Source: Nanobdellota archaeon (lineage in GTDB: Archaea > Nanobdellota > Nanobdellia > Pacearchaeales > GW2011-AR1). From it: a DNA stretch of 64,000 bases. The translations under genes and the position numbers were made by a program. Below, piece after piece: positions 5,912 through 51,105 of this stretch. Each line of letters starts with the position of its first letter. Position 1 is the stretch's first letter. The notes under the pieces are model-generated. The model was not told where the DNA came from. It saw only the letters and a list, made by a program, of their open reading frames with translations, and did not search any database. The stretch spans positions 2,668 to 66,667 of the forward strand of contig JBBSYE010000006.1 of the NCBI GenBank assembly GCA_038045385.1, written 5' to 3'.

Positions 5912-6274
5912 ATGACCCGACTAGCTAATTTAGAGGCATATTCTACATTTCAAAGAGGGCTCGATATAATCAGGAGGCAGTTCCCTACATTAAACTTTAT
6001 ACCTGATGAATCTACTAATCTTATTGATGCAACAAGCGGGATGCATAACGTACTCTATCGAGGTATAAATGAGGCCAAAAGAGTATACGAAATGATCGTG
6101 GCTTACTCATTGTGTGAAGGAAAACCACTTATTCACATTCGTGTTTATGAAAATGACCATAGGGATATAGTTCGCAGAATATTAGAAGAAGACTTGAGGA
6201 TAAAACCCTCTATTGGAGACCAGAGGCCCGCCTTTGATAAGATCGACATTGATGCACCTCTCAATGTATCATAA
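5912..6274 (+). CDS. hypothetical protein (islet cargo)
   Basis: 120-aa ORF with its own GAAAGATTTAAATA promoter-like sequence. Confidence 0.7.
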   Translation: MTRLANLEAYSTFQRGLDIIRRQFPTLNFIPDESTNLIDATSGMHNVLYRGINEAKRVYEMIVAYSLCEGKPLIHIRVYENDHRDIVRRILEEDLRIKPSIGDQRPAFDKIDIDAPLNVS

Positions 6275-6380
6275 CTAAATCGTTACAGAAATTAACCTCT
6301 TTGATTTGTTCGTTTAATCAAGTGCTAGAGTTTTGATTTCCTTTATTTTATAGAACGAAAAAGGTAGCGGAACTTTACTC

Positions 6381-6402
6381 TTCGATTCTCCGTGGGTCCA
6401 CT
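6381..6402 (+). repeat. 22-bp direct repeat, copy 2 (tRNA-Ala 3'-end fragment)
   Basis: Identical to 5709-5730; flanking bases differ on both sides. Confidence 0.95.
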
Positions 6403-6434
6403 CAATTTATAAAATCACATTCCTATAAAAAGCC

Positions 6435-7367
6435 ATGAAAATATTCAGCACACTCCTATTTATCTTACTATTATCTACCATAGTTTACGGCGCATATTTC
6501 CTTTATGGAGAGCTAGATAGAAAGAACTACAATATAACCCCAATAACTAACACTCAAGATGAAATTCCTTCAATTCCTCAACAAAATAGCCAAAGCAAGC
6601 AATTCTATAATAACATGAGATTTACAGACAAACAAATATCATACTATTTTGACGAACGTTGCTCTGAAGAAAAGATAAATCAACTTGAAAAGGCATTTAG
6701 TATATTCGAAGATGAAACAATTCTAGAATTATCTCAAAATTCAGACGGAGAAATTTATATTGCTTGCTCTGAAATAGCTCCAGATCCTCAAACAGAAGGG
6801 CATTTCGTCGCAGGAGAAGGGGGCCCAACAAAAGTCATAAACGGAACAAAATATGCCATAATTCTTGAGGGCAAAATCTCTCTATTTGAAGACGAAGAAT
6901 GTAGCAGACCGAATATTGCAGTTCATGAGCTATTTCATGTATTTGGCTTTGACCATAATAATGACCGCAAAAGCATCCTCTACCCTACTCTAGATTGTAG
7001 CCAAATTTACAACCAATATCTCTTTGACAGAATAAATGAGCTTTACACCACGCCAAGTCTACCAGATTTAAGACCTCAAAATATTGAATTAGAAAAAACT
7101 GGCCGTTATCTAAAATTTTCAATCGAAGTCTCAAACGACGGCCTTAAAGAAGCAAATCAAGTGGATTTAGATTTGTTTATTGATAACGAGAAGACGAACA
7201 CCTTTGAGCTTGGGGATATAGACATAGGAGTAAAGAAAATCTTTAGCGTAGAAAACTTACGTGTTCCAAGAGGCGCAAAAAAAGTCGAATTTAAAGTTGA
7301 CTCCTCAAGTAAGATACCCGAAATATCTGATCTAAATAATAACGCAGAATTTAATATAGAAGACTAA
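6435..7367 (+). CDS. membrane-anchored metzincin (matrixin-like) metalloprotease with a C-terminal CARDB domain
   Basis: HELFHVFGFDH zinc motif; C-terminal LPDL...V.N.G...VDS...I.E....NN pattern. Confidence 0.85.
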   Translation: MKIFSTLLFILLLSTIVYGAYFLYGELDRKNYNITPITNTQDEIPSIPQQNSQSKQFYNNMRFTDKQISYYFDERCSEEKINQLEKAFSIFEDETILELSQNSDGEIYIACSEIAPDPQTEGHFVAGEGGPTKVINGTKYAIILEGKISLFEDEECSRPNIAVHELFHVFGFDHNNDRKSILYPTLDCSQIYNQYLFDRINELYTTPSLPDLRPQNIELEKTGRYLKFSIEVSNDGLKEANQVDLDLFIDNEKTNTFELGDIDIGVKKIFSVENLRVPRGAKKVEFKVDSSSKIPEISDLNNNAEFNIED

Positions 7368-39481: not shown

Positions 39482-39789
39482 TATTCCTTCATCTCAATTT
39501 TAATTTGCACTGAGCGAGGAATCTTAAGCATCATAATAGGATGCAAAACTCTATCTTCAGCAGGCAAATCAATTATTCTCTTATGAACTCTCATTTCAAA
39601 TCTGTCAAAAGTAGCAGTTCCATTTCCACATGGGCTTTTTCTAGTAGTAACTTTCATTCTTCTTGTAGGTAATGGAATAGGCCCGTGCATCATCACCCCA
39701 GTCCTTGATGAAATATCTTTTATCATTCCCACTATGCTATTCAGTTGTGCTATGTCAACACTACTCAATCTTATTCTTACTACTCCCAT
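39481..39789 (-). CDS. rps10: 30S ribosomal protein S10
   Basis: GPIPLPTR...TRKSPCGNGTATFDRFEMRVHKRIID. Confidence 0.95.
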   Translation of the reverse strand: MGVVRIRLSSVDIAQLNSIVGMIKDISSRTGVMMHGPIPLPTRRMKVTTRKSPCGNGTATFDRFEMRVHKRIIDLPAEDRVLHPIMMLKIPRSVQIKIEMKE

Positions 39790-44586: not shown

Positions 44587-45083
44587 AACCTCCAAAGAGA
44601 ATAGTAACAAGAGTAATCATTCTTCTAGTAATTTTAATATTAGCAATAACCCTCTCTATTTACATAAAATTTTCAAATAAGCAAGTCCAAGAAATAATTC
44701 CAGAAGAAGTCTCAAATAGCAAAATAGAATCCTGTGAGTTAGATTCAGATTGCGGAATATTCACGACTTGTCAGCAATTTAGCTCATCAGAATCTGCACT
44801 TTACGCACCATGTAGCTATTTTGCCACAACCACGCCAAGATGCATAAACCAAGAGTGTATCTATAAAGATAAAAATAGTATCATAACTCGTTGCTTACCC
44901 TCATGTTTAAGCGATGAAATAATTCCAAAAGAATGTTCAACTCCAAGAGATTCAAGCGGACAGCAAAACTCCAACGCCGAATGTATCTCTCATCCAGAAT
45001 CTACCCTTGCCTGTCAAAGCCCAAAGTCATGTAATAACGTGTATAGCGGTAATTGCCGAGGAATTACTGCAGTTTGCGCATGA
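44583..45083 (+). CDS. membrane-anchored Cys-rich extracellular protein
   Basis: N-terminal TM; many Cys including CELDSDC. Confidence 0.7.
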   Translation: MKPPKRIVTRVIILLVILILAITLSIYIKFSNKQVQEIIPEEVSNSKIESCELDSDCGIFTTCQQFSSSESALYAPCSYFATTTPRCINQECIYKDKNSIITRCLPSCLSDEIIPKECSTPRDSSGQQNSNAECISHPESTLACQSPKSCNNVYSGNCRGITAVCA

Positions 45084-45093
45084 AAAAGATTAA

Positions 45094-45864
45094 CTAGAAA
45101 ATACGATTCGCAAGTAAAATCTTCAAATTAACTGGATATTGGACACCATCACGTCGCATCCAGGAATTATAAATCCCCTTAGAGTCATATTGAAATTCAA
45201 TAAGCGCAAAACTTTCGGGAGTCATTGGCCCGCCTATCTCACTAATATCTCGGACAGGATTATCCGGACGTGCGGAATTGACTGCCCCAACTAAAAGCGA
45301 TTCACAAATTCCCCCATGGCCTACAAGCACTCCAATATCCTTTCCAGATTTAAGGCGATTTAACGCCCTAGTTAAACAAGGAGATCTACTTCTAACCAAA
45401 TTATCAAAAGGAGTTATTTTAACGCCCTCAAGTTCTTGAGATTTTGAATTAGCTATCCAATTAGAAATATATTCTCCCTCTCCTTCTCTAAGCGCTTCAT
45501 CATTAAAAACTATATCGCTAAAATCAAGCCTTTTATCAACGCCTATAGCATTCCTTTCAATAGGAACACGATCAAGATCTTTTTGACATGCAGGAATTGG
45601 TTCATATCCGAATGCCCCAGCTATGCGAGCAATTCCAGTATATCTCGTGCGTTTTCTCGAGCTATGAGAAATAAAAAAGCGATTTCCCTCAAGCCCAACG
45701 TTACCTTCAGAATAATTCTTAAATGCTACTTTTGCTTGTTTGTATAAATTACCTATGCTCCAAGAACTAAGAGACTTATCTTCAACATCATCACCATTCT
45801 GCCTTTCAGTAAAACCCTGTCTTGTAATCATCAATATCTTCTCTACCATAAATAACTCGTTCAT
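45094..45864 (-). CDS. histidine-phosphatase-fold protein with RHG replaced by RQG
   Basis: ILMITRQG; HSSRKRTRYT; VLVGHGG. Confidence 0.65.
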   Translation of the reverse strand: MNELFMVEKILMITRQGFTERQNGDDVEDKSLSSWSIGNLYKQAKVAFKNYSEGNVGLEGNRFFISHSSRKRTRYTGIARIAGAFGYEPIPACQKDLDRVPIERNAIGVDKRLDFSDIVFNDEALREGEGEYISNWIANSKSQELEGVKITPFDNLVRSRSPCLTRALNRLKSGKDIGVLVGHGGICESLLVGAVNSARPDNPVRDISEIGGPMTPESFALIEFQYDSKGIYNSWMRRDGVQYPVNLKILLANRIF

Positions 45865-45946
45865 AATAGCTATTTAAATTCTCCGTTATGTAACTATTAT
45901 AAAAAGACAACATATAGCAAGCTTTAAATATCCATTCTAGAGATTA

Positions 45947-45961
45947 TGTATAATCTATACA
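45947..45961. promoter_or_regulatory. palindrome TGTATA-N3-TATACA abutting the start of the AbrB-like gene
   Basis: Read directly; lies between a TTTAAATA TATA-like box and ATG 45962. Confidence 0.4.
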
Positions 45962-46108
45962 ATGAAAGAAAAGAAGTTCATCATAACAAAAAAGATAGCC
46001 AAGCACGGTTCTCAATCAATAATTGTAGTGCCACGTCTAATTGAAGAGCATCTCAAACCAGGCACAATCGTACAACTCACGATAGAAGTTAAGGAGGAAT
46101 TAAAATGA
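45962..46108 (+). CDS. 48-aa AbrB/DUF2080-like DNA-binding protein
   Basis: MKEKKFIITKKIAKHGSQSIIVVPRLIEEHLKPGTIVQLTIEVKEELK*; ATGA overlap with the kinase; not in the ORF track. Confidence 0.75.
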   Translation: MKEKKFIITKKIAKHGSQSIIVVPRLIEEHLKPGTIVQLTIEVKEELK

Positions 46109-48291
46109 GGCTTTTAGAAAACATGACAATTCAAGAGTGCGTAGCTTCAATTTTGGATAGAAGCAAATATTCCGGATTGACCCCCATTGATGAAAAAGAT
46201 CAGGGAATGCAAAGACAAACATTCACAGTAGAATTTGGTCTAAGCCAGAACAAAACTAAAAGAATCGTAAAAGCCGACAAAGCTCCAGAAGGCTCGAATA
46301 GCACATTCGTCGTTTCTCGCGGTTGCGGGACAAGAAGAGAACTAGATTTATTAGGCAGGCTTAGTGTAGAAGATGCAATCAGTAATAATGTAAGCCCCTT
46401 GCTTGATGCTTATATTGAAGATGATTTTGCAGTCTCCGTTGAACCTCTATTTGATAAATGTACAACTTTAAAGAAATTTGTTGCAGAGAAAGGCAAGCTT
46501 AACTATTCTCAAACAAAACAAATATTTAATCAAGTCTTAAAGGGAGCAACTTTTTTGAGAAAAAATAACTTATATCATAGAGATTTGAGTCCATCAAATA
46601 TTCTTGTGCGTAAAACAAAAGAATCTTTTAAAGACGATCTCGAGGCACGTATAACAGATCTTTCTAATGCTCAATTAGTAAATCAGGTAGAACAATCATT
46701 AGCTCCAACTGCTGGCGGTCGTTTAATCAGAGACCCATTACTTGGAGCACAATTCACCGGAAAAGAAGAAACATATTCAGATCAAACAGAAATTTATGCA
46801 TTAGGAATAACTATGTGCTATGCATTAACAGGAGAAACTCCATTTGAATATGATTTTCTTACAGGAGAAGCAAAACATAAAGACTCTAAAGTAGGTGATT
46901 TGTTAGACGAAAATAAAAAACTAATTCTTGAAAATCATAATGCTGTCGTTAAGAATGCATTAAGCAAGCTAAAAGGTCGTTCAAAAAGATTCAAGCCATT
47001 ACTTGAGCGTGCACTCACAGCAGATGAGACCAAAAGATTTGAATCATTAGAAGACTTTGTTTCCGAATACAACAATGTTACTTCAAAAGTTTTCACGGAT
47101 CAATTTATAGACAACCCAGATAGTTTAATGATATGGGGCGTATCGGCCGGAATAGCAATACTTGGTGTAATGGCTGCTTATAGTGGAAGTGAACAACAAG
47201 ATATCCAAAGAAGAATAGACGTCGCAAAAGCCTCACAATATCAAGTTTATGCAGAATTTGACGGAGCAGATATGGAAATTCGTAACAACGCAATAAAATT
47301 AGAAGTGATGGCCTACAATAGCTCAAACGATCTTATGCCTCGTCCAATCTTTCCAGAAGAAGTCACTTTTATTAGAGCTCAACCTGGAGAAAAAATATGT
47401 ATCAGCACTTCACTTAAAGCGGCTCCACTTCCAGAAGAAATTGCTCATGAAATAGAAATGAGTAGCTTTCATGGCCGAGCGTATATTGAAGGATTGCCTC
47501 TAGATGATAAAACAAGTTGCCAGTTATCAGCAATGGCTTACCCAAACGATAACTCAAAAATGATGGGCCAATTTCAAGGCCGTCGCAACTATAATTCAAG
47601 CGGTTACATAACTATTCCAGAAAATCAACCGTCTGGAGTTTATCCAATTGCAGTAGAAATGGACTCTCCAGAAAATGAAAAGCTACCTGGACCAATTATT
47701 AGTGGAGCACAGGGCGGAATTTATGAGTCTGTAAGAGAAGAGCAAATTCCAAAATCAAAAATAAATTATATCAAGCCAAGAGGAATACTTGCAAGAAAAA
47801 GAATTAACGTTGTAGTAGGTAATCCCTCTACAATAATCGATCAATCATATGTTAGAAGAGATTTTGGAGCGCAGAGTTCATTAGCAATAGGCATAGAAGA
47901 CATTGAAAATCGCGAACATATCCCATTTGAAAAATACTCTATTAACTATCCTCTACTTCCGATTAAATGTATCACCAACATAGTTCCAAATCAATGGGTA
48001 GAAGATTCAAACATTGTACGTTATGATCGGGCATTTTTTAATAATCTACCAAGATCAACAAACATTGAAAAAAGAAATGTCCACGTTATATTCCAAGATA
48101 CCAATGGAAAAACGCTCTATTCTTCGGTCGTTCCAATGGAATCATACAATTTTATGGAAGGCGTAAAAGACTACGATGGAAATAAAATGGCTCCTGATTA
48201 CCAATGGAGATTTCGCACTCCAGACAGAAATTTCGGAAAAGAAATAGCCTGTGAAAGAGAAGAGCTTGAAAAAATCATAAATTCAAAATAA
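46105..48291 (+). CDS. membrane-spanning Hanks-type Ser/Thr protein kinase (divergent)
   Basis: YHRDLSPSNILV; ITDLS at the DFG position; EIYALG; central TM; long C-terminal domain. Confidence 0.85.
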   Translation: MRLLENMTIQECVASILDRSKYSGLTPIDEKDQGMQRQTFTVEFGLSQNKTKRIVKADKAPEGSNSTFVVSRGCGTRRELDLLGRLSVEDAISNNVSPLLDAYIEDDFAVSVEPLFDKCTTLKKFVAEKGKLNYSQTKQIFNQVLKGATFLRKNNLYHRDLSPSNILVRKTKESFKDDLEARITDLSNAQLVNQVEQSLAPTAGGRLIRDPLLGAQFTGKEETYSDQTEIYALGITMCYALTGETPFEYDFLTGEAKHKDSKVGDLLDENKKLILENHNAVVKNALSKLKGRSKRFKPLLERALTADETKRFESLEDFVSEYNNVTSKVFTDQFIDNPDSLMIWGVSAGIAILGVMAAYSGSEQQDIQRRIDVAKASQYQVYAEFDGADMEIRNNAIKLEVMAYNSSNDLMPRPIFPEEVTFIRAQPGEKICISTSLKAAPLPEEIAHEIEMSSFHGRAYIEGLPLDDKTSCQLSAMAYPNDNSKMMGQFQGRRNYNSSGYITIPENQPSGVYPIAVEMDSPENEKLPGPIISGAQGGIYESVREEQIPKSKINYIKPRGILARKRINVVVGNPSTIIDQSYVRRDFGAQSSLAIGIEDIENREHIPFEKYSINYPLLPIKCITNIVPNQWVEDSNIVRYDRAFFNNLPRSTNIEKRNVHVIFQDTNGKTLYSSVVPMESYNFMEGVKDYDGNKMAPDYQWRFRTPDRNFGKEIACEREELEKIINSK

Positions 48292-49153
48292 GCAACTGAT
48301 TATTAAGTAAAATAATATGATGACTTAATGAAATTAATTTCTCCTCAAGTGCATTGTTTCCTTTAATTTTGCTCTTAATAGTTTCATAATTCTTAGCGAA
48401 AATCATTAGTTCATGATTATTAAAGTCTTTTAACAGCCTCTTAAACAGCGAAAATTGTTCTTTAATCATCTTCATAATATCACCATATCTAGCTTCTCCA
48501 GACCTCGCCTTATAGCCCAAAGCAGTATCTTTCAAAATATCTCCTATCTCTTCTATTAACATCACAAGCGTATAATAATGTAAACTTTTTTCTGATTCCG
48601 GATGCCCATACTTATTCAAAATTCTCAAACAATAATTAGATATCCTATTGATAGCAGGATCACTCTCTAATACTTCTTTTGAATTTTTTTTATTTTCAAA
48701 CATCATTTCAAGTTCTCCAATCATTGACTCAGTCATAAACAATAATCTTTCAAATAACCCATTAAACTGATTTTGAGAAGTTCCAGTAACGTCTCGCAAG
48801 ATAAATCTTCCACTCTCTTGCTCAAAAATCTCAAATCCCAAAAGTTCATGGATAACTCTTTTTTTGAAATCTTTTATTTTTTCATTTTCTTTTACATAAG
48901 TTACTTCAATTTCATCAGCTCCTCTTACATATAGGGCTATGAGCGCGCGGTTAGTAAGGAGTTCAACATTACTAACATTCAAGCTTACCTTAACTGGCTC
49001 TTGCTTTCCAGTACCAGCTTTCAATATCAGAGAGCTTTTACCTTCTTCAATTTCAATCAAATCTCCTTTCTTGAGTCTATTACTATCGATCCATTTCTTA
49101 GGAAGATAAAGAGTAAATCCTCCTTTTCCCTGTTGGATAAGTTTCCTATTCAT
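48275..49153 (-). CDS. AbrB-PhoU phosphate-uptake-regulator-like protein
   Basis: RKLIQQGKGGFTLYLPKKW...GD; ALYVRGADEI; PhoU-like helical repeats (IEEIGD). Confidence 0.85.
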   Translation of the reverse strand: MNRKLIQQGKGGFTLYLPKKWIDSNRLKKGDLIEIEEGKSSLILKAGTGKQEPVKVSLNVSNVELLTNRALIALYVRGADEIEVTYVKENEKIKDFKKRVIHELLGFEIFEQESGRFILRDVTGTSQNQFNGLFERLLFMTESMIGELEMMFENKKNSKEVLESDPAINRISNYCLRILNKYGHPESEKSLHYYTLVMLIEEIGDILKDTALGYKARSGEARYGDIMKMIKEQFSLFKRLLKDFNNHELMIFAKNYETIKSKIKGNNALEEKLISLSHHIILLNNQLLILNL

Positions 49154-49203
49154 TTTATTAGATGTTATTTGCTATATTTAACTATTTCTATTTTAATATT
49201 AAC

Positions 49204-49232
49204 CCTATAAATGATATGGAATACCTATAAAT
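49204..49232. promoter_or_regulatory. direct repeat CCTATAAAT x2 (20-bp period) in the divergent promoter region
   Basis: Copies at 49204-49212 and 49224-49232. Confidence 0.35.
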
Positions 49233-49275
49233 AGCCACTTTCTATCAAATAGTAACTAATAAGTCGTAACAGAAA

Positions 49276-50352
49276 ATGAAAACAACAAAAACAAAGATTA
49301 CAAGAGTAGGAAAAGCTCTAGCGACAGTTCTAGCACTTGCTCCTTTAAGAGCCTATGCCGAAGAGCCTATAATCGCACCCGCAAAACTAACTTTCCAATC
49401 ACGAAACGCATATGTTCATAGCGCAGAACAAGATACATTAAACACTCAACATTCTCTAATCTATACTCATCCAGATTTTACTTCTAAAACGCTACTTGAG
49501 ACGCTTCCTGAAGGAAAAATCAATATAGGAACAGACTTTAGCACTAATGACTTCAGACTTAATCTTGGCCACGGATTCCGAGAAAATGAAGATATGAGCA
49601 GAGCCTCATTTACATTCTATCCACAACATGACTCCGCAAAGAGTTTCATAGGAGCAACCTATCAATCATTACCTCAAGGCAATCGCGCAATCTTTATTGG
49701 CGGTTTTGACTTAACTGATAAGCTACATCTAGAAGCAACATTTGACACTCAAGGCAACGTACGCGGAGCAATATTCCCTAGTTTAGGAACCGGAAACGGA
49801 GTACTCGGAATCGGCGGAGGAATTTCTAGCGAAGGTAAATTTGACATTAACGCCTCATACAACACAGATAAAATCTGGGCAAGCATCAAGCTTGGCGACA
49901 GACCAATTGACGCTCGTTTTGTCTTTGGAGATGTAGATCCTAACTTTACTCGTTATATCACAACAGTCACAGGACAAGGCGATAACGAACTAGATGTATT
50001 TCCAGATCAAACGCTCAAATTTGATATAGCTAATGGCTTTTTCGATTACTTCGGCCCTCATGCATTTTTCCTAGGAAAAGATCAAGGAGATATAGCCCTA
50101 GATATAAGATTCAAAGAATCAAGTAAGTTATACGGAAATTTTTCTTACCGCCTAGGAGATATCGGCCCATTAAAAGAAACAGCAATAACAGGCGGATTAT
50201 ATAGAGATTTATCAAATGAAAAAAGCGGAGTAACATTAGAAACAGGCTTCAAATTATTTGATAAAAAATCTCCTTTAGAAATCAGACTTAAAGCAGATAT
50301 TAATGAAGAAGGTAAAACAATGATCGGCCTCTTCGGCGAAATCAAATTCTAA
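49276..50352 (+). CDS. secreted beta-rich protein resembling a transmembrane beta-barrel
   Basis: Signal peptide ending AYA-EE; repeated short amphipathic strands; no Cys; C-terminal GLFGEIKF. Confidence 0.65.
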   Translation: MKTTKTKITRVGKALATVLALAPLRAYAEEPIIAPAKLTFQSRNAYVHSAEQDTLNTQHSLIYTHPDFTSKTLLETLPEGKINIGTDFSTNDFRLNLGHGFRENEDMSRASFTFYPQHDSAKSFIGATYQSLPQGNRAIFIGGFDLTDKLHLEATFDTQGNVRGAIFPSLGTGNGVLGIGGGISSEGKFDINASYNTDKIWASIKLGDRPIDARFVFGDVDPNFTRYITTVTGQGDNELDVFPDQTLKFDIANGFFDYFGPHAFFLGKDQGDIALDIRFKESSKLYGNFSYRLGDIGPLKETAITGGLYRDLSNEKSGVTLETGFKLFDKKSPLEIRLKADINEEGKTMIGLFGEIKF

Positions 50353-51056
50353 TGAAAGACTTACCTAGCGCAGATATCTATGAAAAAGAATTTAAGTATT
50401 GGCCATGGGGCAAGTTAGTAAGGGAGGTAGCCGATACCGTAATAAGAGAAGCTCCGCAAAATAGCAAAACTCTCGATTTAATGTGCGGACCAGGATACTT
50501 ACTCAACAGAATTCACCAACAAAGACCAGACTTAGAGCTAACGGGCGTAGATATCAGCGAAGATTTTATTTCGTATGCCCGAAGTAATTATCCAGATATT
50601 AATTTTATTCAAGCTGATGTGCTACAATGGATTCCACAGAAAAAATACGATGCAATTATTTGCACAGCAGGCCTGCATCATCTACCTTATTGGCGACATG
50701 CAGGTTTTATAGTAAGTAGTCATGAACTACTAAACTCGGAAGGTTTTTGCATATTTGGCGATCCAATGTTTGGAGACTATGAAGGCGAAGAAGAAAGAGC
50801 TTTAGCAGCTGCAGAATTGGGATATGAATCTCTTAGAGCCGTAATAAAAAATAAAGGCGATCGGGATCTGGTAAAAACAGCATTAGACGTAATGCACAAC
50901 GATGTCTTAATGGATGGCGAGTTTAAAACATCTGTAACAACATTAAGAAGACTCTATGAAATGATTTTCCCAAGTGTAGAAATGCACAAAACCTGGCCAC
51001 TAGATGGAAAGCAAGGATATGGAGATTACTACTTTATTCTAAGAAACGCTAAATAA
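50352..51056 (+). CDS. class I SAM-dependent methyltransferase
   Basis: LDLMCGPG, GVDIS, IQADV, AGLHH. Confidence 0.88.
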   Translation: MKDLPSADIYEKEFKYWPWGKLVREVADTVIREAPQNSKTLDLMCGPGYLLNRIHQQRPDLELTGVDISEDFISYARSNYPDINFIQADVLQWIPQKKYDAIICTAGLHHLPYWRHAGFIVSSHELLNSEGFCIFGDPMFGDYEGEEERALAAAELGYESLRAVIKNKGDRDLVKTALDVMHNDVLMDGEFKTSVTTLRRLYEMIFPSVEMHKTWPLDGKQGYGDYYFILRNAK

Positions 51057-51105
51057 AGAATCAAAATAAGTAAAAAAAAAAGAAAAATAAAAATTAGATA
51101 ATTGC

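Follow-up and report, generated by a model that had tools for sequence, protein, structure and literature searches.

Membrane beta-barrels count as a hallmark of bacterial outer membranes and of bacteria-derived organelles, and their assembly is thought to need Omp85. What, then, is to be made of an archaeal gene whose product has the look of an outer-membrane channel? The question is raised by a 64,000-nucleotide (nt) stretch of DNA, referred to here as the window, from a Nanobdellota archaeon of the Pacearchaeales (assembly GCA_038045385.1, contig JBBSYE010000006.1, positions 2,668 to 66,667). The gene lies on the forward strand at 49276..50352, closes with a TAA stop codon at 50350-50352, and encodes a precursor of 358 amino acids (aa), P0001. 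Prediction strongly supports the reading of P0001 as a membrane beta-barrel. Our tentative proposal, which we hold with a little less than even confidence, is that the protein is a kinase-controlled, self-inserting channel for a lipid layer outside the cytoplasmic membrane, probably that of a partner cell.

The original prediction was made from the DNA letters and listed a Sec signal with an AYA cleavage site, some 330 mature residues rich in glycine and aromatic side chains, an absence of cysteine and a terminal GLFGEIKF, all of which are present in the sequence. Its start at 49154 takes in a 122-nt spacer common to the divergent gene at 48275-49153 on the reverse strand. The first 28 residues (49276..49359, forward strand) read as a Sec-type signal peptide, with cleavage predicted after A-Y-A; the N-terminus, MKTTKTKITRVGKALATVLALAPLRAYA followed by EEP, comprises a basic n-region, an 11-residue hydrophobic core and the A-x-A motif. 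This n/h/c layout, with A-x-A followed by Gln, Glu or Asp, is kept across 36 homologues. As expected of a cleaved leader, the segment has a predicted local distance difference test score (pLDDT) below 50 in the AlphaFold2 (AF2) model. The mature protein numbers 330 aa and contains no Cys, with Gly at 10.3% and Phe, Tyr and Trp together at 11.5%. By a crude score of alternating hydrophobicity, P0001 comes first among the genome's 605 open reading frames (ORFs) that reach 150 aa or more.

AF2 supplied with the 36 homologues predicted the structure with a pLDDT of 90.3 and a predicted template-modelling (TM) score of 0.82, and the five models concur (pLDDT 88.6-90.3). A run with eight sequences reached a pLDDT of 73 and gave the same strand map. 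DSSP assigned to the model 20 antiparallel strands and a single long loop at residues 218-272. When the model was compared by Foldseek with the PDB, the best 50 matches listed were all membrane beta-barrels, headed by OccD2 (3sy9), OccK8 and OccAB3/4 (E about 1e-6, TM-score 0.38-0.42) and continuing after these Occ channels with OmpG, OprB, ushers and TamA. The best matches in a viral fold library were phage-borne porins, and no soluble fold was found among the best matches of either library.

The strands are 8-13 residues long and alternate strictly between apolar and polar side chains throughout a family whose members share 22-50% identity. Averaged over the family on the Kyte-Doolittle scale, the apolar face scores +1.49 and the polar face -1.36, with polarisation in 20 of 20 strands. 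The last strand, TMIGLFGEIKF (50317..50349, forward strand), resembles the beta-signal of outer-membrane proteins: the C-terminal residue is Phe in 27 of the 36 members and Trp in one, and F358 of P0001 stands in register with the apolar face of strand 20. A closed barrel with a hydrophobic belt is what the DSSP assignment, the Foldseek matches and the sequence together point to. The beta-barrel idea of the original prediction was not refuted by fold prediction, which returned a 20-strand model whose best matches are transmembrane outer-membrane barrels and which presents a conserved hydrophobic face.

The arrangement of the loops is unusual. Classical outer-membrane proteins have long loops on the far side of the barrel and short turns on the side of the termini; in P0001 the layout is the reverse of that in classical porins, and the rule of short termini-side turns and long far-side loops does not hold. 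Facing away from the termini are ten turns whose median lengths across the family are 2-6 residues. The loops on the termini side are short too, except for the one joining strands 14 and 15 (residues 218-272; 49927..50091, forward strand), which is modelled with a pLDDT of 72-95. This loop spans 55 residues in P0001 and 51-61 aa in 36 of 36 members, and it carries GDNELDvfPDQTlkFdI, the family's best-conserved motif. In P0001 the loop has a net charge of -7, the family mean being -3.5. We regard the loop as a putative constriction or plug inside the lumen, and the layout as a whole may be the least costly for a protein that inserts unaided from the side of its producer.

Does the protein belong to any described family? 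Neither Pfam (E <= 1) nor NCBIfam returned a match for P0001, none of the 36 family members matched Pfam, porin families included, and a profile of the family found nothing among PDB sequences at E <= 10. A phmmer search over 1.84 billion representative proteins retrieved 38 proteins, nearly all of 330-410 aa. One of these, P0038 (3524 aa), was rejected as a relative on an hhalign probability of 0.1%. A search of the genome encoding P0001 found neither a paralogue nor a second barrel, and no other candidate ORF in it combines such a leader with a terminal aromatic residue. The most distant member, P0041, is 22% identical, ends in Leu and is encoded on L019, a Logan contig with a guanine-plus-cytosine (GC) content of 0.50, alongside valyl-tRNA synthetase (ValRS), a PabB-PabC fusion, a penicillin-amidase-like protein and a tetratricopeptide repeat protein. 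The gene content of this contig is unlike that of small DPANN genomes, and the model matches of its ValRS are ambiguous as to domain. A search with P0041 yielded no further relatives, and the contig may represent a branch of the barrel family in bacteria or in larger archaea.

Comparison with characterised barrels brings out both the resemblance and the peculiarities. The closest structural matches are the OprD/Occ channels of Pseudomonas and Acinetobacter (OccD2 3sy9, OccK8 4frx, OccAB3 5dl7; Foldseek E 1e-6 to 1e-5), with which P0001 shares a signal peptide and a terminal Phe and, in the predicted model, a monomeric barrel of similar size; their pore is narrowed by inward loops, a part that the loop of P0001 probably plays as well. 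OprD/Occ proteins have 18 strands, whereas 20 are predicted in P0001 (TM 0.38-0.42), and there is no sequence relationship between the two groups, neither a Pfam OprD match nor a PDB profile match having been obtained. Their long loops are extracellular; P0001, in contrast, has short loops on both sides and a single long one on the side of the termini, and its producer is an archaeon lacking the machinery for beta-barrel assembly (BAM). General and monomeric porins (OmpG 2f1c, Omp32 2fgq, OmpU/OmpT, OprB 4gf4) belong to the same fold class and have the same amphipathic strand pattern, and an acidic inner loop facing a Lys/Arg-rich wall, as residue counts suggest for P0001, recalls the L3 eyelet of general porins. 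These porins nevertheless have 14-16 strands against 20, TM-scores of 0.25-0.39, no sequence similarity, and long outer loops that P0001 is without.

Two further groups deserve mention. VDAC and Tom40 are large, 19-strand barrels whose loops are very short on either side and which have a segment inside the pore; in these respects they resemble the barrel predicted for P0001. They differ in their odd strand number, their N-terminal helix and their need of SAM50 for insertion. They were not among the best 50 fold matches, and Pfam Porin_3 was not matched. The beta pore-forming toxins of the alpha-haemolysin and aerolysin types are secreted, enter a foreign membrane without a machine and send only tight turns across it, all of which is proposed for P0001 as well. 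Such toxins, however, donate one hairpin per subunit and oligomerise, whereas P0001 would form a complete barrel from a single chain, and none was among the fold matches listed.

The gene is archaeal property. The original prediction had left room for a bacterial chimera in this region, and such a chimera is excluded: the same gene order with archaeal genes is found in at least five independent assemblies. The source assembly (783 kb in 8 contigs, 89% complete) yielded no small-subunit rRNA. An archaeal-type uS10 (39484-39789; TIGR01046, 124.7 bits against a cut-off of 96) is encoded about 10 kb upstream of the barrel gene on the same contig, and the genome holds two TATA-binding protein repeats. 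Homologues of the barrel occur in the genomes of four GTDB species labelled Woesearchaeota/Nanoarchaeota, one of them on a 760-kb contig of a sister genome. The whole neighbourhood is retained even on a JGI contig whose barrel protein is only 31% identical, the conserved order being dUTPase, S10, NUDIX, Na/H exchanger, seryl-tRNA synthetase (SerRS), kinase, regulator, barrel, methyltransferase, DoxX and helicase. Within this block the barrel is the fastest-evolving gene, at 31% identity against 55-88% for its neighbours. Its GC content, 0.386, compares with 0.354 for the genome and 0.31-0.41 for neighbouring genes. The distribution of the family is narrow: it is present in 4 of the 9 genomes of the genus and in none of the 52 genomes sampled from the family and order outside the genus, with two clear matches in 401 genomes of the phylum.

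How such a barrel could reach a membrane is less obvious. A search for Omp85/BamA (PF01103), whose controls responded, gave no match at E <= 10 in this genome, which is 89% complete. In the same genome MlaD was not found and no geranylgeranylglyceryl phosphate (GGGP) synthase of the PcrB family scored above cut-off, which fits dependence on a partner for membrane lipids. Cryogenic transmission electron microscopy of ultrasmall groundwater cells, not identified to lineage, showed cells that have no outer membrane and that fasten to diderm hosts, and in the same study Pacearchaeota were strongly attached to hosts (PMC7906910). That large barrels can do without a machine is illustrated by BamA and SonA, which insert unaided into liposomes (PMC13018214). 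Full-text literature searches found no description of such barrel proteins in Woesearchaeota; what comes closest is a single sentence about what may be an Altiarchaeales relative of PopA, a different family (PMC12228718). Elsewhere in the genome, outside the window, a 203-aa ORF (G000 C8:48900-49511, forward strand) starts with MMKLANRLVAGSVGLAGMLNLTGC, which by its sequence resembles the leader of a bacterial-type lipoprotein, lipobox Cys included.

Is the barrel part of the standing equipment of these cells? Comparison with sister genomes (L035, L036, L037, L038) delimits a variable island between SerRS and DoxX/helicase (44587..51105) that contains the kinase, regulator, barrel and methyltransferase genes. 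In G002 and G003 almost nothing separates SerRS from DoxX and/or the helicase that follow it, and the 6.5-kb block is missing. The site is also empty in G004, yet the triad is present there about 85 kb away among other genes, and in G008 the site is occupied by different genes. These absences are real and do not stem from incomplete assemblies. The barrel gene belongs to an optional island, which speaks against its being a core part of the envelope. Neither flanking repeats beyond chance size nor an integrase or transposase was found around the island.

Two genes are fixed companions of the barrel. The first (46105..48291, forward strand) encodes a receptor-type Ser/Thr kinase of 728 aa (Pfam Pkinase, 3.7e-19), the sole such kinase in the genome; its kinase domain is cytoplasmic, a single membrane segment lies near residues 343-365, and the outer domain measures 360 aa. 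The second, transcribed divergently from the barrel (48275..49153, reverse strand), encodes a 292-aa regulator with an AbrB/MazE-like N-terminus (Pfam MazE_antitoxin, 22.7 bits, below the cut-off of 24.7) and a helical C-terminal domain. The two adjoin one another at seven other loci (L004, L005, L013, L015, L025, L026, L027), the regulator adjoins the barrel gene at five (L004, L005, L006, L013, L015), and the kinase together with a regulator of 290-310 aa bearing the AbrB-like N-terminus flanks it at four (L004, L005, L013, L015). The regulator family reaches much further than the barrel family: 27 of 61 related genomes encode members of it, as many as six in a single genome.

What occupies the divergent slot next to the kinase and regulator genes varies between genomes. 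In G009 (L025 3423-10369) the pair faces, in the barrel's position, a complete Liv-type branched-chain amino-acid importer of the ATP-binding cassette (ABC) class, consisting of a Peripla_BP_6 binding protein, two BPD_transp_2 permeases and two ABC ATPases. In three other genomes, G011 and G033 among those whose slot is so filled, the place is taken by a family of secreted, Gly-rich proteins represented by P0043, with members at L004 4693-5883 (forward), L026 3759-4874 (reverse) and L027 6076-7416 (forward). P0043 itself has 396 aa, ends in GAYIGLQVRF and has no Pfam match; its family may perhaps be another barrel family. The variability of the slot, the ABC importer included, suggests that it houses regulated uptake or surface functions, and it is by this association only that a transport role for the barrel is supported.

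Several observations attach to these relatives and substitutes. The G033 member of the P0043 family has a lipobox-like SGC in its leader. At L004, P0043 lies between the regulator and the closest relative of the barrel gene (67% identity; 5971-7084, the same DNA as L010), which a frameshift splits into ORFs of 323 and 84 aa; in this single assembly the frameshift reflects either decay after the arrival of the P0043 gene or an assembly error. A further protein, P0044 (368 aa; L022 1441-2547, G209), from another class-level relative, has a near-identical leader style (…AGSLAGAYAQEE), is rich in Gly and aromatic residues and ends in GLTVWLGKKSK; its match to the barrel-family profile is confined to the leader region. 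Neither P0043 nor P0044 showed significant profile similarity to the barrel family.

What might pass through the channel? The original prediction proposed a secreted pore-former for nutrient uptake, possibly of phosphate, and took the divergent neighbour for a PhoU-type regulator. The predicted barrel and its predicted export favour a secreted pore-former; the phosphate part found no support. The regulator has no PhoU match in Pfam (E <= 1), NCBIfam or PDB sequences, the sub-threshold AbrB/MazE hit to its N-terminus being all that was obtained, and no pst genes were found nearby. Phosphate porins, moreover, have basic ladders, whereas the inner loop of P0001 is acidic.

The mechanism that we tentatively put forward runs as follows. 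P0001 would be exported by Sec and fold into a monomeric barrel of about 20 strands like those of bacterial outer-membrane channels. After export it would enter, with no machine to help it, a lipid layer lying outside the producer's own cytoplasmic membrane, most likely the membrane of a partner cell at a site of contact. Only turns of 1-6 residues would need to cross the bilayer, with the termini and the long loop remaining on the producer's side, and the conserved acidic 55-residue loop would fold into the lumen as a constriction. The channel might pass small solutes, amino acids or cations being likelier than phosphate, to the benefit of an organism that appears unable to make its own lipids or most metabolites. 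The kinase would sense a cue from outside and switch the barrel gene on by way of the regulator, which would bind at the divergent promoter. Extended beyond this one genome, the proposal would be that some DPANN archaea make transmembrane beta-barrels without a BAM-type machine and plant them, under kinase control, in the membranes of host cells as self-inserting uptake channels; in that general form we consider it more doubtful than not.

Several points weigh against the proposal. The whole case rests on prediction, and the similarity to known barrels reaches TM-scores of no more than about 0.4. The usual explanation for a conserved terminal Phe is recognition by BAM, which the genome encoding P0001 lacks. 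No case is known to us in which a barrel of 20 strands enters a foreign membrane spontaneously. Finally, the argument from the ABC importer is one of guilt by association, and the regulator family also adjoins unrelated genes.

The likeliest of the other explanations is that P0001 is a secreted or S-layer-associated beta protein that does not sit in lipid at all, its apolar face serving oligomer contacts or the binding of a hydrophobic surface or ligand, for which scavenged lipid is an example. Amphipathic beta sheets tend to be closed into barrels by AF2, the resemblance to real porins stops at a TM-score of about 0.4, no insertion machine was found in the genome, and lipids must come from outside given that no GGGP synthase was found. 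The strict alternation in 20 of 20 strands across the family, with strands of 8-13 residues typical of membrane spans, speaks against it, as does the lack of a soluble fold among the best matches of either library; a single-layer barrel of 20 strands would, besides, need lipid, detergent or a partner protein to bury its apolar face. We judge this explanation unlikely. A step less credible still is a porin of the archaeon's own outer lipid layer, be it an outer membrane or a sheath as in the few double-membraned archaea. It would account well for a bacterial-style kit that is complete in signal peptide, amphipathic strands and terminal Phe, but P0001 is the only such protein in its genome, which is without Omp85, MlaD-type lipid transport and GGGP synthase; the gene is missing from 5 of the 9 genomes of the genus, with a demonstrably empty site in G002 and G003; and the long loop is on the termini side, opposite to its position in proteins assembled from the periplasm. 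The ultrasmall groundwater cells, again with their lineage not identified, had no outer membrane (PMC7906910).

The tight far-side turns, which resemble the membrane-crossing hairpins of beta pore-forming toxins, invite a more aggressive interpretation, in which P0001 is an offensive pore-former that permeabilises a competitor or host. Fast evolution, patchy spread, island-like gain and loss, and replacement in the slot by another secreted family would all suit a gene of conflict. A monomeric, full barrel with a conserved internal loop is nonetheless not an oligomerising donor of hairpins, no immunity gene is evident, and the same regulatory slot in G009 holds a nutrient importer, so that we think this interpretation improbable. 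Last, there is the prospect that P0001 is a bacterial gene brought in by mis-assembly or contamination, or that the model mispredicts a protein that is not a barrel. The protein looks entirely bacterial, and P0041, at 22% identity, sits on a contig of 50% GC with PabB/PabC and a penicillin amidase. The shared order with archaeal genes in at least five independent assemblies, a GC content matching that of the neighbours, a stop codon coupled to the start of the next gene and the agreement of all five AF2 models (pLDDT 88.6-90.3) have largely refuted both versions, and we regard either as very improbable indeed.

The barrel family is conserved and archaeal-owned, in genomes without the Omp85 machine and without lipid synthesis. 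The family would reveal an unrecognised outer layer or give a first molecular handle on the way in which ultrasmall archaeal symbionts gain access to their partners, and both questions date from the discovery of DPANN archaea. If barrels are indeed planted in hosts, Archaea would have in this family their first native membrane beta-barrels, and the inside-out arrangement of the loops would be the mark of insertion from outside. As a small, Cys-free, single-chain protein, P0001 is directly testable by refolding and bilayer recording, and the on/off presence of its gene among sister genomes supplies natural controls. New in this work are the optional island, the pairing of the barrel with a kinase and an AbrB-type regulator, the exchangeable slot and the single acidic loop on the termini side.

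The spacer between the regulator and barrel genes (49154-49275) contains the direct repeat that the original prediction had pointed out. Two CCTATAAAT boxes lie 20 nt apart at 49204..49232; one copy is at 49204, the other at 49224, and the 64-kb window contains no third. The count itself is unremarkable, since 1.28 copies are expected and 32 of 100 shuffled sequences reach two; their proximity alone is notable. The motif is absent from orthologous spacers and was rejected as a conserved operator. The orthologous spacers each carry a pair of their own, AT-rich boxes of 7-10 nt about 20 nt apart and of differing sequence, as expected for two back-to-back TATA boxes, and the CCTATAAAT pair is most likely two such boxes of back-to-back promoters.

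Downstream of the barrel, a class I S-adenosylmethionine (SAM) methyltransferase of 234 aa (50352..51056, forward strand; Pfam Methyltransf_25, 4.9e-15) begins within the barrel's stop codon, the two overlapping as TAATG; the same arrangement is seen at L004 and is not conserved at L005. Class I SAM methyltransferases of at least two types adjoin barrel genes, lying after them in the window and at L004 and before at L014 (3-749). The genes downstream at L015 and L006 are also part of this pattern, which may be coincidence.

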